The notes beneath the pieces were generated by a model. The model saw only the letters and a list, made by a program, of their open reading frames with translations. It was not told where the DNA came from and did not search any database. This document shows positions 5,824-64,000 of a stretch of DNA of 64,000 nucleotides, in pieces. Source of the stretch: Candidatus Omnitrophota bacterium (GTDB lineage Bacteria; Omnitrophota; Gorgyraeia; Zapsychrales; JAHFFX01); the NCBI GenBank assembly GCA_023247725.1, contig JAHFFW010000004.1, positions 19,921-83,920 on the forward strand, in the 5' to 3' direction. The stretch's first letter is position 1. Every line of letters starts with the position of its first letter. The translations under genes and the position numbers were made by a program.

Positions 5824-7223
5824 ATAGTTCTTACGATTACTGTGTAGTAGGCGCCGGACCCAGCGGATTAACCGCGGCCTACCAGTTGCTTAAGGCCGGA
5901 CATTCTGTGATTCTTTTGGAGCGGGACAGCCGAATCGGCGGCCTGGCCAAAAGTTATAACTATGACGGTCATGTTTTTGACACGGGACCGAAGCGTTTCC
6001 ATACCGAGGACCCCATCGTTCTTGATTTTATTAAGGAAATCATCCAGGATTCCGTCCTGCAGATTTCCCGCTCGACGGAGGTTTATTTCCTTAAGAAATA
6101 TTTCGAATGGCCTTTGAAAACCCGCGAGTTGTTCAAAATGCCCTGGCCGGTCATTGGGCGTTGCGCCGTTGATTTGATCAAAGCGAAAAAAATACAGGAT
6201 CCTCATTCCTTCCGGGAATTTATCATCTCCAAATATGGTCCAACTCTGTACGAAATCTTTTTCGCTCCTTACACGGGAAAGTTCCTGCGCTGGGATCCTA
6301 AGGATATTCATTCCGACTGGGCTTCGACGGGAATCAACCGGACGGTCATCGACAAACGGATCAAAACCAACACCTTATTGGATATTCTCAAGGTCCTCGT
6401 TTTGCCCGAGAAGGTCGACACGCATTTTCTTTATCCCATGCAAGGAGGATTCGGCGGGTTTTATGAGCGCCTGCTCGCGCGGTGTCAAGAGTATCCGCAG
6501 TTTTCGCTTTTGCTCAATAACTCCGTCGGCCAATTGACGAAGGAGGAGGAGAGCTTGGGCATTCGGACCAAAGACGGAAAATCCATTTCTTGCACTCACC
6601 TCATCTGGAGCGGAAACCTCAATTATTTGGCCAATCTTATTGCTTCGCAGCAGAATGTCCACTACCTCAATACGATTTTTTATAATTTGATCTGCCGTCA
6701 GGAGGGGATCAGTCATCAGCGTTCGCAGTGGATTTACGTCAGCCGCGGCGACAGCTTGATCAGCCGCATCACGTGTATGAAAGAATTTGCTCCCTACACC
6801 TGCAAAAATGGCTACTATAACGTGATCTGTGAATTGACCGATTCGCAGGCAAAACCTTTTTATTTTCTTAATCCCGAACGGTATAAAGACAAAATCCTGG
6901 AGGAACTCAAAGGCATGGCCTTCTTAAAAGATTCCCGGTTTGTTGAAGGCGTTCAGATCAATCCTGTCGTTGATACGTATCCGGTTTACCACCGTCACTA
7001 CACCCGGGATTTTGCCTCGATCGCCGGTCAGGTGAAGAAATTTTCTCCCCGGATTCATCTCTTAGGCCGTTGCGGGGCCTTCTGGTATAATAATTCCGAT
7101 CATTCCATTCGGTTTGCAATTGAGCTGACCCATAAATTGCTGGGCAAAAAAGAACAGGAATTTGCCTACCGGGATTATTTTGGCGGAACCAGCCTCCGCG
7201 CCGCTCATCCCCAAGGAGAATAA
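5820..7223 (+). CDS. FAD-dependent oxidoreductase, UDP-galactopyranose-mutase-like / amine-oxidase-like
   Basis: N-terminal YDYCVVGAGPSGLTAA dinucleotide-binding motif, IGGLAKSY and DTGPKRFHT motifs resembling Glf. Confidence 0.55.
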   Translation: MNSSYDYCVVGAGPSGLTAAYQLLKAGHSVILLERDSRIGGLAKSYNYDGHVFDTGPKRFHTEDPIVLDFIKEIIQDSVLQISRSTEVYFLKKYFEWPLKTRELFKMPWPVIGRCAVDLIKAKKIQDPHSFREFIISKYGPTLYEIFFAPYTGKFLRWDPKDIHSDWASTGINRTVIDKRIKTNTLLDILKVLVLPEKVDTHFLYPMQGGFGGFYERLLARCQEYPQFSLLLNNSVGQLTKEEESLGIRTKDGKSISCTHLIWSGNLNYLANLIASQQNVHYLNTIFYNLICRQEGISHQRSQWIYVSRGDSLISRITCMKEFAPYTCKNGYYNVICELTDSQAKPFYFLNPERYKDKILEELKGMAFLKDSRFVEGVQINPVVDTYPVYHRHYTRDFASIAGQVKKFSPRIHLLGRCGAFWYNNSDHSIRFAIELTHKLLGKKEQEFAYRDYFGGTSLRAAHPQGE

Positions 7224-58781: not shown

Positions 58782-60299
58782 ATGGACATTCAAAAGATCC
58801 TTTTAGCTGCAGCCGAGCGTTTTCCTCAGAAAGCCGCCCTTATATATAGGGAAGAGACGGTTTCCTTCCAGCAATTGCAGGAAATGGTTTTACAGGTGGC
58901 TAACGCGCTTTTACTTGAAGGCATTCAGAAGTCGGAGAAGATAGGGATCTTTCTACCAAATTGTCCGGAATATCTCTATTCCTATCTCGCCATTTTTTGC
59001 CTGGGCGCTGTCGGCATCCCCTTGGATTATATGCTTAAAATGGATGAGCTTATTTCCTGCCTACGGCATTCCGAGGCCACGGTTCTTATTGCTCAAACGA
59101 ACCCCGCTGTTTCTCTCGATGAACTCAAAAAAGCCGTGCCTTCATTGAAAACAATCATCCTCCTTGGTCCGCATTCAGGAAACTTTCATTCCTTTACAAA
59201 TCTTACCCGCCGCGCTCCTGCCCATCCAATTTCTATCACCACGACCGAGACTGATCCTGCATTGATCATGTATACCTCCGGAACTACCGGGAAGCCCAAA
59301 GGAATTCTATTGAATTATCGGCACTTGGAAGGTTCTCCCAGGGCCATGGAATATTTTGTTGATTTAACCGAAAGGGATGTTAAACTTTGTGCTCTGCCTT
59401 TGAGTCATGTTGGCGGTTTTATCTATATTCAGAATTGCATCATGTTCGGGATCACACTGATCCTTATGGATCGATTTAATCCCTTCGAATTCCTGGGGCT
59501 CATTGCGCGTTACCGGGTGACGTGTTTTCATATTGTCCCCGCCATGTACACGGCCATTCTCACCTTAAAACAGATTGAGAAATTTGATTTGTCTTCGTTA
59601 CGCTGGGTCGTGGTTTTTGGAGCGCCGGGCTCGCCGGATATCTTACAAAGGTTTCATCAGTACTGTCCGAATGCCCAACTGCTCAATGGCTGGGGAATGA
59701 CCGAGACCTGTCCGCCCAACACCGTTACGCCTTTAGGAAGTAACCGAATTGAAAGTGTCGGCAAACCTTCGCCGCATTGTGAAATCAAAATTTTCGATGA
59801 GGAGGACAAGGAGATTCCCGTCGGAAAGATTGGGGAAATCGTGATCCGCGGCTGGGTTGTTATGGAAGGTTACTATAAAGATCCGGAGGCAACCGCCATG
59901 GCCAAGCGTCATGGGTGGTTTCATACGGGAGACCTGGGCCGGTTTGATCAAGAAGGATTTCTCTATATCGTCGGACGCAAAAAGGAAATGATTAAAGTGG
60001 GCGGTCAGATTGTTTACGCCCCCGAGGTTGAATCGGCGTTTTATAAACATGAAGCCGTCGCTGAAGCCGCGGTCATTGGCGTGCCGGATCAATTGCGGGG
60101 TGAGGCCGTGAAGGCCTTTGTGGTTTTAAAAGAGAAGGGAAGTATTGCCAGCGAAGACTTGCGGTATTTTCTTCGGGACCATCTGGCGCATTTCAAGGTG
60201 CCGCAGTCGGTGGAAATCCGCGAGGCCCTGCCTAAGAATCGAACCGGAAAGGTTGACAAAGAGCTCCTTAAACAAGAAGCCCAATCCGTGGGTCAATAA
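58782..60299 (+). CDS. AMP-dependent synthetase/ligase (acyl-CoA synthetase family)
   Basis: YTSGTTGKPKGI AMP-binding motif, TGDLG, KVGG. Confidence 0.85.
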   Translation: MDIQKILLAAAERFPQKAALIYREETVSFQQLQEMVLQVANALLLEGIQKSEKIGIFLPNCPEYLYSYLAIFCLGAVGIPLDYMLKMDELISCLRHSEATVLIAQTNPAVSLDELKKAVPSLKTIILLGPHSGNFHSFTNLTRRAPAHPISITTTETDPALIMYTSGTTGKPKGILLNYRHLEGSPRAMEYFVDLTERDVKLCALPLSHVGGFIYIQNCIMFGITLILMDRFNPFEFLGLIARYRVTCFHIVPAMYTAILTLKQIEKFDLSSLRWVVVFGAPGSPDILQRFHQYCPNAQLLNGWGMTETCPPNTVTPLGSNRIESVGKPSPHCEIKIFDEEDKEIPVGKIGEIVIRGWVVMEGYYKDPEATAMAKRHGWFHTGDLGRFDQEGFLYIVGRKKEMIKVGGQIVYAPEVESAFYKHEAVAEAAVIGVPDQLRGEAVKAFVVLKEKGSIASEDLRYFLRDHLAHFKVPQSVEIREALPKNRTGKVDKELLKQEAQSVGQ

Positions 60300-60313
60300 G
60301 AAAGGGAAAGGAC

Positions 60314-61078
60314 ATGACGAACAAAGTACAAAGAATGACGCGCGACATCCACATGACCGGACAGGATTTGACCAATATGGTGCAGTTAAGGCCGACGGAC
60401 CTTGGCAAATATGCCATCGTGCCTGGACCGAAGGAGCGGCTGGACAATCTGGTCAAGAAATTGGAAAACCCGATCAAAAATTTCACGTTTATGGAATATT
60501 CCATGTTCACCGGCATGTATCAGGGAATTAAGATGACCGCCATGAACGGGGGGCGGTTTTCGGCGGATACCGCGATCACGACGGAACTCCTGTGCAACGC
60601 CCAGGCCAGGCACATGATCCGGATCGGGAGCTGCGGGGCCTTGAGCGATGAGATCAACATCGGTGACATCATTGTGGTCAATGGGGCCATCGCCGGCGAA
60701 GGCGTGACCCCTTATTATGTCCATAAGGATTTCAAGATTGAAACCGATAAGGCCTTGACCGAGGCGATCTATGCGGTGGCGCAAAAAAGCGGTCATCAAA
60801 TCCATCTCGGGAAAGTCTGGTCTACCGATGCCATTTTGCGGGAGACCAAAGAAAACGTCAATAACGCCATCGATCAGGGTGCGATTGCCGTCGATATGGT
60901 GTCATCCGTCTTTTTGACCCTGTGCCAGCTTTATGAAATTCCGGCAACGGTCATTCTGGCCGTGAGTGACAATATCATCACCGGCGAAATGGGATTCCTT
61001 TCGCCGAATTATTATATGGCGGAGAGTTCGTTGGTGACGATTGCGTTGAACCTGATAAAGAAACTGGAAGAAAAGTAA
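60314..61078 (+). CDS. Nucleoside phosphorylase, PNP/UDP family I (DeoD-like; possible MTA phosphorylase)
   Basis: RIGSCGAL phosphate/ribose-binding motif, overall PNP_UDP_1 layout. Confidence 0.65.
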   Translation: MTNKVQRMTRDIHMTGQDLTNMVQLRPTDLGKYAIVPGPKERLDNLVKKLENPIKNFTFMEYSMFTGMYQGIKMTAMNGGRFSADTAITTELLCNAQARHMIRIGSCGALSDEINIGDIIVVNGAIAGEGVTPYYVHKDFKIETDKALTEAIYAVAQKSGHQIHLGKVWSTDAILRETKENVNNAIDQGAIAVDMVSSVFLTLCQLYEIPATVILAVSDNIITGEMGFLSPNYYMAESSLVTIALNLIKKLEEK

Positions 61079-61088
61079 ACGAGGGAGG

Positions 61089-61289
61089 ATGGCCATGAAA
61101 TTTCCGGTAACGGTGCATAAAAGTTCCTATGGCTACGATGTCCACTGTCCTCTTCTGCCGGGGTGTCATAGTCAGGGAGAAAGCATTGAAGAAGCCTTAG
61201 AGAATATCAAGGACGCCATTAAAACATATTTGGAAATGGTCGCTGACGAAGAAAAAGGCCAGCTTTATGAAGTTGAAGTAGGAGTCTGA
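61089..61289 (+). CDS. hicB: HicB-family antitoxin (UPF0150-like)
   Basis: 66 aa; HKSSYGYDVHCPLLPGCHSQGESIEEALENIKDAIKTYLE matches the HicB N-terminal fold signature. Confidence 0.65.
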   Translation: MAMKFPVTVHKSSYGYDVHCPLLPGCHSQGESIEEALENIKDAIKTYLEMVADEEKGQLYEVEVGV

Positions 61290-61498
61290 TGCTCTTTACG
61301 GATCTTTCTTCTGACCGTGTTGTTAAAGCTTTGACCAAAGCGGGTTTTAAAATTATTCGTCAGGGAAAACATATTGGCATGTCGAATGGCACTAAGTTCT
61401 TGGTGATCCCCCGTCATCCACGGATTAACCCTTATACATCGAAAGGGATTATTCGTGATGCCGGGTTAACGGAAGAACAGTTTAAGGAACTTATTTGA
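61289..61498 (+). CDS. hicA: HicA-family toxin (YcfA-like)
   Basis: 69 aa; VVKALTKAGFKIIRQGKHIGMSNGTKFLVIPRHP...KGIIRDAGL matches the HicA pattern; the start overlaps the hicB stop. Confidence 0.65.
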   Translation: MLFTDLSSDRVVKALTKAGFKIIRQGKHIGMSNGTKFLVIPRHPRINPYTSKGIIRDAGLTEEQFKELI

Positions 61499-61573
61499 AA
61501 AAATCCTACCGAAAAGATATCTACAGCACCGTTTTTGTGAGACCTATGAAAAGATGCTAAAGGATCCTCGATT

Positions 61574-62551
61574 ATGAAAGAATCCCCTTTATTCTGGCCG
61601 GCCCAATTAAAAGGCCGGACTCTACTGGTCCTCGATGAGACATTGATCCCCAAGAAAATTCATTACATCAAAGTCAAAGGGACCAATGATGCGGTCCGGG
61701 TTATCCGCCAGATGAAAACCCGGGCCTTTGGCCAGTTTTTGGTTGTCTTCAATACATTCCTTTTGACACTTAAAACCTCATCGGAAACGTCCCAGGTCTT
61801 GATGAAAGAGATCAAAAAAACCGCGCAGGCCCTGAATAACAGCCGACCGACGTTTCCTTTTGGAGAGGTCACTGCGGTCGTCGTGAATTGGGCGCAAATC
61901 GCTTTGGATCATGGACAAGAACTTCCAGCGATGAAAAGGTTTCTCGAAAAAAATATTCAAGGATACCTCCAAGGAATTCGCCATCGCCGCCTTGCGCGAG
62001 TGGCACAGATCGCGTCAGTGATCGAAGATGGAGACCGAATCTTGACCCATTGCAATGTCAGCGGCGAATTGGCCATGGCGGCTCAGATTTGTCAGCAATC
62101 GAACAAACGTGTGCATTTTTTTGCCACCGAAACCCGCCCCTTTTTTCAAGGCACGAAGCTCACTTGCTGGGAATTGCAAAAGCTCGGCGCGAATGTGACC
62201 CTTGTGGCAGACAATGCCGTTGGATCGCTTTTGCAAGATGGTTTGGTTGACAAGGTGATTGTTGGGTCAGACCGGTCTTGCGCCAATGGCGACATCGCCA
62301 ACAAGATCGGAACATATCAGATTGCGGTTTTGGCTAAAGAATTCGGCGTGCCTTTTTTTGCCCTGACGCAACCCTCCACCCGGATTGCCCGCGGAGAAGA
62401 CATCCCGATCGAGATCCGTGACCCCCATGAGCTTTTGCAGTTTGGAAAACGAAAAATCGTGGCTGGAGGTGTCCGGGGTTTTTATCCAGGATTCGATGTG
62501 ACTCCTCGGGAATTGATCGGAAAATCCATTGCCATCCATGTCCAATCCTAA
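61574..62551 (+). CDS. mtnA: eIF-2B/MtnA-family isomerase (methylthioribose-1-phosphate isomerase candidate)
   Basis: ILTHCNVSG, GSDRSCANGDIANKIGTYQIAVLAKEFGVPFFAL. Near-identical block architecture to MtnA; the N-terminal domain is degenerate. Confidence 0.65.
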   Translation: MKESPLFWPAQLKGRTLLVLDETLIPKKIHYIKVKGTNDAVRVIRQMKTRAFGQFLVVFNTFLLTLKTSSETSQVLMKEIKKTAQALNNSRPTFPFGEVTAVVVNWAQIALDHGQELPAMKRFLEKNIQGYLQGIRHRRLARVAQIASVIEDGDRILTHCNVSGELAMAAQICQQSNKRVHFFATETRPFFQGTKLTCWELQKLGANVTLVADNAVGSLLQDGLVDKVIVGSDRSCANGDIANKIGTYQIAVLAKEFGVPFFALTQPSTRIARGEDIPIEIRDPHELLQFGKRKIVAGGVRGFYPGFDVTPRELIGKSIAIHVQS

Positions 62552-63017
62552 GGAGCCGGTCCTTCTCATTCAAGGGGTTTTGGCGGAAAGATTTTTTGAC
62601 GAATTAAAAAAGCGTTCCACCGATCAGGTGTTTCTGATGGAAGGCCGTCCGACGCTGGAAGCGGCCACTCGAGGTTGCCGGCAACTTTTAAAACGACGGA
62701 TCACCCCGACCTTGATTTCCGACAATATGGCTGGTGTTCTTTTTTATAAAAATTTGGTGAAAGAAGTTTGGATGGCTTACCAGGATACGGATCAAGAGGG
62801 CGCGGTTTGCGATTCTGGGGCGCTCATTCTCGGCGTTTTGGCTAAGCGTCACGTCATTCCGGTTAAGCTTTTTCCGGCGCAGCGTAAGACGAGTTTTTTA
62901 GGAAGACCCGAGCAGCTTTTGTGTTTTCAAGGAACCCGCTTGGCGCCCAAAGGCATCAAGGCTTATGTGCCATTGGTAGAATGGGTGCCCGGAAAATACA
63001 TTTCGGAGATCCATTAG
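62529..63017 (+). CDS. Truncated eIF-2B/MtnA-like paralog (C-terminal domain only)
   Basis: VFLMEGRPTLEAATRGCRQLL...TLISDNMAGVL...GALILGVLAKRHVIPVKLF follows the eIF2B-family C-terminal Rossmann-like pattern but lacks the N-terminal domain and the THCN motif. Confidence 0.45.
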   Translation: MPSMSNPKEPVLLIQGVLAERFFDELKKRSTDQVFLMEGRPTLEAATRGCRQLLKRRITPTLISDNMAGVLFYKNLVKEVWMAYQDTDQEGAVCDSGALILGVLAKRHVIPVKLFPAQRKTSFLGRPEQLLCFQGTRLAPKGIKAYVPLVEWVPGKYISEIH

Positions 63018-64000
63018 ATGCAGGACCTAATCACTATTAAAACCTTTCGCCGTAATTTCGAGGCGGAGCAAGCCAAGGAATTGCTTAAGGCAAATCAAAT
63101 CGAGGCGATTGTTTCTATTCCCAACTGGGGCGGCATTCTAAAGAGAGGTCCCCGAAGGTTTAGGAAATGTTCAACTCTTGGTTCATCAAAGTGAGGCTCA
63201 AAAGGCCCTCGATCTTTTGGAGTCGACCGAAAGTGAAGTCGACAATTCGGTTTTGCAAGAGGCCGTAGAAAACAATACCATGCTGTCGTTTCAACCGGAG
63301 AAAAAAGCGGAGAAAACTTATCGTCTTGTCCCCATGATGTTAGTTGTCGTTGTAATTTTTTTTCTGTCTATCGCGGCGGTTAATTTTTTTAGACCCTGGA
63401 TTTTCGTTGAATATTATAAAGGTGCAAAAGGTAATATCCATAAAGCGGTGCGAAGTGAAGCCATTGTCAGCCGGGGCAAGGCTAATGGCCTTTTGAAAGA
63501 ATTCTATCAAAATGGAGTTCTGCGCCGCACCGGTAATTTCCGTAACGGTCGGGCCGAGGGGATTTTTCGGCACTATGACGATAAAGGACATTTAAAAAGT
63601 GAAGCGACTTATCAGGACGGTAAATTGTATGGACCAACAAAAAGTTATTATGAAAACGGACAATTGGAATCTGAATTCAATTTTTTTGATAATGAGTTCG
63701 ATGGAATCCAGAAAGTTTATTATCCCAGCGGGGAGATTTGGCGTGAATTCACCTATCAAGGGGGAACGCGGCTGGATAAATCTGGAAATCCGGTTTCCGG
63801 AATGTTAAAAGAGTATCATGACAATGGAATTTTGGTCCTTGAAGAAAATTATGTCGCTGGACGGTTGCAGGGTGCGGCCCAATATTATGATCGTGAGGGT
63901 CATTTGGCTAACATTCAAGTTTTTGACCACGGAATCCCATTAGTTTTTAAGGAATTTTATACGAACGGTCAAGTAAGACATGAAGCGTATTATTCTCAGT
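63018..64000 (+). pseudogene. DUF2007-like domain + TM helix + MORN/YwqK-like repeat protein, reading frame interrupted at a C4 run (63150-63153); 3' end outside window
   Basis: Frame A (63018-63194) encodes MQDLITIKTFRRNFEAEQAKELLKANQIEAIVSIPNWGG... A -1 shift at GGTCCCCGAAGG continues as EGLGNVQLLVHQSEAQKALDLLES (completing the DUF2007 pattern), then TM (LVPMMLVVVVIFFLSIAAV) and MORN-like repeats (YQNGVLRRTGNFRNGRAEG..., YENGQLESEFNF...). Confidence 0.45.
63280..64000 (+). CDS. Alternative reading: independent TM-anchored MORN-repeat (YwqK-like) protein, partial
   Basis: ATG 63280 follows an in-frame TAG. TM helix then at least five MORN-like repeats (G..Y..NG.L). Not listed in the track because it is open at the 3' end. 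Confidence 0.5.
   Translation, partial: MLSFQPEKKAEKTYRLVPMMLVVVVIFFLSIAAVNFFRPWIFVEYYKGAKGNIHKAVRSEAIVSRGKANGLLKEFYQNGVLRRTGNFRNGRAEGIFRHYDDKGHLKSEATYQDGKLYGPTKSYYENGQLESEFNFFDNEFDGIQKVYYPSGEIWREFTYQGGTRLDKSGNPVSGMLKEYHDNGILVLEENYVAGRLQGAAQYYDREGHLANIQVFDHGIPLVFKEFYTNGQVRHEAYYSQ

Follow-up and report, generated by a model that had tools for sequence, protein, structure and literature searches.

Members of the Pfam family DUF2007 (structure 2HFV, protein RPA1041) have an essentially empty literature. The gene described here lies at the end of the window, by which we mean the whole 64,000-nucleotide stretch of Candidatus Omnitrophota DNA that was analysed, and its protein shares with DUF2007 a small N-terminal domain of the predicted order beta-alpha-beta-beta-alpha. 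However, the window copy is a weak match to the Pfam family (13.7 bits), lacks the DD...RPHL loop motif of its subfamily and is frameshifted. With the MORN_2 or YwqK-like proteins (PF07661, COG2849) it has in common at least six repeats and a predicted beta-hairpin solenoid, but in the window protein these repeats are tethered by a transmembrane (TM) helix to the DUF2007-like domain. Intact DUF2007-TM-MORN proteins share both the domain order and the length (339-371 aa, compared with 348 aa for the corrected window protein). These proteins are uninterrupted, however, and the two that have an informative context are encoded upstream of rpsP-yajC-secD and not in an aldolase operon. For the frameshift itself, the described counterpart is the prfB-type +1 frameshift that serves RF2 autoregulation. 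The window site resembles it in the +1 direction, in a P-site codon that can re-pair and in a Shine-Dalgarno (SD)-like sequence just upstream, but its A site holds neither a stop nor a hungry codon, its SD spacing is non-canonical, and it is not conserved among homologues.

Interrupted at one position only, the gene is a single unit; the interruption is carried by the DNA itself, and the gene as a whole is an insertion. All coordinates are on the plus strand. Frame A begins at ATG 63018, 7 nt downstream of the SD-like GGAGA at 63006-63010, and ends with the TGA at 63192-63194, thus encoding 58 aa. Its coordinates and translation, which a sequence-only reading had given together with the assignment to part of a DUF2007-like domain, could be reproduced. 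Residues 1 to 41-46 correspond to the N-terminal half of the domain (beta1-alpha1-beta2 and the following loop), and the final 12-17 residues before the TGA are out of frame. The open stretch of frame B (register 63019) begins at 63142, directly after a TAA at 63139-63141, and reaches the window end at 64000, with its TGA 65 nt past that end; it contains the C-terminal half of DUF2007, a linker, the TM helix and the MORN repeats. Public gene calls start frame B at TTG 63178, which results in a 295-aa ORF (P0001) that is an ordinary CDS in the NCBI annotation; the next ATG is at 63280. The presence of an SD sequence was uninformative for choosing the start of frame B, and many genes of this DNA have no clear SD.

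The change from frame A to frame B skips one base, and the DNA is therefore one base too long. Ribosomes would have to shift by +1 here, and the earlier label of -1 thus gives the wrong direction. Removal of one C from the CCCC run (63150-63153) gives the translation ...GGILKRGPEGLGNVQLLVHQSEAQKALDLLES..., and removal of any single base within 63139-63156 leads to a 348-aa product, which in its full length would carry the junction-spanning peptide ...GGILKRGPEGLGNVQ.... Against a family HMM that was built from 33 homologues with the query left out, the uncorrected frame-A product reached 51.2 bits, and the single-base deletions at 63139-63156 reached 93.6-95.7 bits, in agreement with the earlier view that one skipped base joins the frames and completes the domain. 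The scores fell progressively for deletions after 63157. Because of the equal plateau of scores for deletions across 63139-63156, the lesion is localised to these 18 nt, which contain AAA, GAGAG and CCCC. The CCCC run, to which the lesion had been assigned, is the longest homopolymer of the interval; it is read in frame A as CCC-CGA and has a GAGG 1 nt upstream. This assignment holds insofar as the run lies inside the interval and appears to be the most plausible mutational site, but it does not hold as an exclusive one, as any base of the interval is equivalent and CCCC is not the sole candidate. In terms of structure, the lesion falls into the DUF2007 loop that connects beta2 to beta3. The lesion is a single one; the start codon, the SD sequence, the remaining frame and the C-terminal motif E[FY]DxxGxLIF are all intact.

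In the corrected protein, the DUF2007-like domain comprises residues 1-71 (63018-63231), with a beta-alpha-beta-beta-alpha order to which both frames contribute. The single TM helix LVPMMLVVVVIFFLSIAAV spans residues 103-121 (63325-63381) with a mean Kyte-Doolittle hydropathy of 2.96, and the MORN_2 or YwqK-like beta-hairpin repeats occupy 63397-64000. The proposed succession of a TM helix and at least five such repeats up to the window edge was thus recovered, with six stretches matching MORN_2 (PF07661) within the window at 90.5 bits (E = 9e-27; gathering threshold 29.6 bits). The match to Pfam DUF2007 (PF09413) is weak (13.7 bits, E = 0.071, below the gathering threshold of 25.7) and is obtained with the joined product only, as neither half alone matches this family. 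It crosses the junction and covers profile positions 8-65 of 66; the counter-case that had been named, a DUF2007 profile that fails to span the frameshift, was thus not observed, although so weak a match is hardly convincing by itself. The window copy would belong to DUF2007 by transitive homology only, as its own score lies below the curated threshold; the homologues P0060, P0071, P0055 and P0093, all of which also have MORN_2, pass that threshold with 26.1-36.0 bits versus 25.7.

The first 144 residues of the joined protein were searched exhaustively with HMMER against 1.84 billion representative proteins, which gave 45 hits. The best match outside this genome was P0055 (242 aa, E = 7e-16), which aligns in a single frame through the junction (query residues 1-134 to subject residues 1-137) and is similar to the window protein in the N-terminal part and again at the C-terminus. 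Homologues thus run uninterrupted through the junction in the comparison that had been recommended. A profile search added P0098, P0099 and P0100. When the whole joined protein was used as the query in a word-indexed search, only generic MORN proteins were found and the family was missed. The likewise suggested search for intact DUF2007-MORN fusions yielded eight proteins (P0057, P0093, P0060, P0086, P0071, P0098, P0099 and P0100) of 339-371 aa and 26-37% identity, which are collinear with the corrected 348-aa protein over its full length, starting at Met1 and including the motif E[FY]DxxGxLIF at the C-terminus. With these eight full-length members, DUF2007-TM-MORN is a small recurrent family, and the architecture is not unique, contrary to the initial impression that it was unusual. 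The closest homologue is only about 41% identical over the N-terminal 134 residues, with no close orthologue found in these searches, and a metagenome scan with the single protein gave no close relative and no strain variant.

The loop from GG to GNV in the corrected protein has 9 residues, which is the length found in most homologues and therefore fits exactly one extra base. Of the loop residues that are typical for the family, the window copy has neither the near-invariant DD (30/33 homologues) nor RPHL (20-22/33), which are located upstream of and around the lesion. AF2 predicted the joined N-terminus, using the family alignment, as beta1-alpha1-beta2-loop-beta3-alpha2, with mean pLDDT values of 87-96 per 10-residue block in residues 1-30 and 51-70, that is, on either side of the junction. 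As confident strands are predicted on both sides, the fold needs residues from both frames. A prediction for the 327-aa in-window version added a disordered linker, the TM helix (97-123) and, with a pLDDT above 90, the MORN repeats as a beta-hairpin solenoid. The first 86 aa gave zero sequence matches in the PDB even at E = 10. Foldseek against the PDB gave weak matches to small alpha/beta domains, none of them at E <= 1e-3, and the DUF2007 structure 2HFV ranked 11th (E = 0.11, probability 0.98, TM 0.51/0.46).

As gene callers give two ORFs, it was in principle conceivable that a gene for a 58-aa peptide is followed by an independent TM-MORN gene and that the DUF2007 likeness at the junction is coincidental; the mere 13.7 bits of the joined product against Pfam DUF2007 would suit this idea, and a start at ATG 63280 would result in a typical signal-anchored MORN protein. 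However, the homologue alignment passes the junction in a single frame with E = 7e-16, the family-HMM score nearly doubles once the frame is corrected, the AF2 fold requires both halves, and the last 12-17 residues of the 58-aa ORF have no counterpart in the family. Two separate genes are hence hardly credible, and the similarity data argue that the two frames together encode one protein. The 58-aa and 295-aa ORFs of the public annotation are best seen as two pieces of one disrupted gene, which is of value for annotation.

Five contigs, which come from four samples, encode P0001. We compared three contigs (SRR14366766, SRR14366760 and ERZ27279563) with the window as DNA, and they showed 0 mismatches over 10.8, 2.9 and 1.4 kb, with the CCCC run included. 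The first two are Logan assemblies of two separate SRA runs, and the comparison was thus made on assembled contigs; the name of the ENA contig begins with 'k141_', which we take to be a MEGAHIT short-read label. As the identical sequence is present in three other assemblies, two separate runs among them, an assembly error is excluded as the source, and the sampled population carries the extra base in its genomic DNA. The earlier suggestion of a homopolymer sequencing error, according to which the true genome has CCC and an intact gene, could draw on the homopolymer within the lesion interval and on the fact that a single-base indel is a typical error of long-read assemblies. Yet all four sequences are identical through the site, and they stem from at least two SRA runs plus the 'k141_' contig; moreover, a run of 4 bases is not error-prone for short reads. 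An artefact is therefore very unlikely.

The same four sequences (the window, L001, L002 and L003) contain no variant in tract length, which bears on the proposal that the C tract is a phase-variable switch operated by slipped-strand mispairing. A homopolymer within the 5' part of a gene for a membrane or surface protein would be a fitting place for such a switch, but the tract has only 4 nt, whereas at least 7 nt is usual for known contingency tracts. With no length variation at all among the four sequences, we regard phase variation as extremely unlikely.

Experiments have established CCC-CG as a +1/+2 slippery sequence for tRNAPro (PMC4519876), and a leaky or programmed +1 frameshift was among the explanations offered for the locus. 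In this case, peptidyl-tRNAPro on CCC (63150-63152) would re-pair at 63151-63153 with the help of GAGG, and part of the translation would give the 348-aa protein and the rest would stop at 63194. Such recoding would be in line with the SD-like AGAGAGG directly upstream of CCCC, with the intactness of both domain halves, the start codon and the SD, and with the near-maximum score of a correction at CCCC against the family HMM. However, all eight full-length homologues are read without a shift (0/8 require one), which means that the shift lacks conservation. CGA, the codon in the A site, is used at 8.1 per 1000 and makes up 14% of the Arg codons, as computed from 45 window ORFs, and is thus not rare. 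The 0-frame stop follows 13 codons downstream of the slip site, the SD spacing is 1 nt (the spacing that is effective in prfB is 3 nt), and the lesion can be placed equally well at AAA or GAGAG. Rfam contained no element matching around the site, and local RNA folding was no more structured than that of shuffled controls (z = +1.1). We consider recoding improbable on these grounds. It is quite improbable that GAGG and CCC-CGA form a lineage-specific, newly arisen and moderately efficient +1 recoding site that yields full-length and truncated products; if this were true, the site would also maintain the supply of ribosomes to the downstream aldolase gene, which is translationally coupled. The idea of hungry codons at CGA/AGG was ruled out by the codon usage of the window, and a scan for promoters and terminators gave nothing above chance that bears on the frameshift site.

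Because there is no split homologue, no RNA element and no rare A-site codon, a recent frameshift is the best reading. We attribute, with a probability of roughly 80%, the interrupted frame to a recent, fixed frameshift in an acquired, non-essential paralogue, which is either a case of domain loss or an early pseudogene; of the explanations initially listed, recent pseudogenisation, or truncation, is thus the one that survives. The gene is a member of a family of single-pass membrane proteins in which a disordered linker joins DUF2007 to one TM helix, with a MORN_2 solenoid at the C-terminus. A single cassette of about 1.05 kb would have entered the AMP-ligase/PNP/IF-2B(325)/IF-2B(159)/aldolase operon in this lineage, and the inserted copy would later have gained one nucleotide within 63139-63156, most plausibly in CCCC. 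Translation from ATG 63018 would now end at TGA 63194 and produce a 58-aa fragment that is presumably unable to fold as DUF2007, and frame B would be expressed only via re-initiation at TTG 63178 or ATG 63280, resulting in a TM-anchored MORN protein that would have no working DUF2007 domain. Alternatively, rare spontaneous +1 slippage at CCC-C might lead to a little full-length protein.

Some observations fit less well with a fixed mutation. The good conservation of the DUF2007 halves outside the loop would be equally expected if +1 slippage at CCC-C still provided some full-length protein. The earlier loss of the DD and RPHL motifs complicates the view that the gene was intact until recently, NCBI annotates the 295-aa ORF as an ordinary CDS, and a minority intact allele is possible, as the evidence consists of assembled contigs. 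Under the favoured explanation, the fixed frameshift is an ordinary gene-disrupting mutation in a gene with domains of known Pfam families; it involves no new decoding mechanism, and the current understanding of frameshifting is unchanged.

With respect to the genomic position, the upstream gene (62538-63017) encodes a half-size IF-2B/MtnA-like paralogue of 159 aa that is conserved in related Omnitrophota loci, and its stop codon TAG (63015-63017) abuts ATG 63018. This half-size paralogue matches the C-terminal half of the 325-aa IF-2B/MtnA-like protein of the same operon with 25-38% identity. The lineage-specific single-gene insertion covers 63018-64000 and ends 61 nt past the window, so that about 1045 nt lie between the stop codon of IF-2B(159) and the aldolase ATG. 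We retrieved 46 related loci with the downstream class II aldolase, all of them from Candidatus Omnitrophota MAGs and with 56-76% identity. Both genes are covered by 42 of the related loci; 41 of these keep the order AMP-ligase, PNP_UDP_1, IF-2B(325), IF-2B(159), aldolase, with 0-260 nt between the last two genes, and in the remaining locus, L009, a run of N (5901-6000) masks the junction of the two genes. tblastn detected no homologue of the interrupted gene in any of the 46 loci.

In the relatives, a GGAG inside the tail of IF-2B(159) precedes the aldolase start, and the inserted gene uses the equivalent GGAG; its stop codon overlaps the aldolase start in an ATGA, just as the stop codon of IF-2B(159) does in L004, the closest relative. 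The GC content of the insert is 0.36-0.45 versus 0.47-0.54 in the flanking operon genes. The locus is thus an example of one gene cleanly inserted into an operon that is conserved in the Omnitrophota, in the order AMP-dependent ligase, PNP_UDP_1 phosphorylase, IF-2B/MtnA-like protein (325 aa), IF-2B (159 aa) and class II aldolase, presumably of the type that salvages SAM by-products, as we take it to resemble a DHAP-shunt or early methionine-salvage module.

The operon extends over 58782-63017 of the window and continues beyond the window end (L001 5605-11568), and, among the 46 loci, nearly all those with enough flanking sequence retain it. Between the PNP and IF-2B(325) genes, at 61089-61498, there is a HicB-HicA toxin-antitoxin pair (66 and 69 aa) with a GC content of 0.41-0.43; most relatives have a gap of only a few to about 180 nt at this position, and the pair is probably a second lineage-specific insertion in the same operon. 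The aldolase (L002 2965-3939, 373 aa) has a low-complexity linker rich in HKSQV/HRSQV and a C-terminal extension with a faint SCP2 match, and it is longer than typical enzymes of the MtnB/Ald2 type. In L041 (4323-5278; MAG MFD01476.bin.2.120), IF-2B(325) matches in two frames, with residues 1-204 in frame 3 and residues 208-322 in frame 2; this apparent frameshift may be an artefact, as the contig name suggests a long-read assembly.

The gene context of other members of this hitherto uncharacterised small DUF2007-TM-MORN family, which is defined by the proteins described above, is different. The genes for P0100 and P0071 are located upstream of rpsP-yajC-secD(F) on unrelated contigs (L051 8001-11967 and L057 120-3636, respectively); P0100 comes from a MAG titled Omnitrophota, the same MAG that contains locus L035. 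In addition, the DUF2007-TM module occurs in P0059 as a fusion with a SecDF P1-head domain. Gene neighbourhood and fusion suggest that the DUF2007-TM module is linked to the Sec accessory machinery, and the adjacency to rpsP-yajC-secDF in the two members with informative context is a modest lead on the function of DUF2007. The window copy would then be a displaced or acquired paralogue.

Ten family members show a modest excess of K/R before versus after the TM helix (36 versus 26), and several members have Cys pairs after the helix. Because of this charge distribution and these Cys pairs, we propose a topology with the N-terminus in and the C-terminus out, in which DUF2007 would be cytoplasmic and the MORN part periplasmic. 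The label of a YwqK antitoxin, which some sources give to family members, is unsupported, as there is no adjacent YwqJ-type toxin; the neighbours are IF-2B-like and class II aldolase genes.

A tRNA scan detected no tRNA genes in the 64 kb, and 44 of the 45 window ORFs of at least 200 aa are on the plus strand, the exception overlapping plus-strand ORFs. Farther downstream, the 95.8-kb contig contains two HEPN/nucleotidyltransferase pairs and a MamF/MmsF-like gene.
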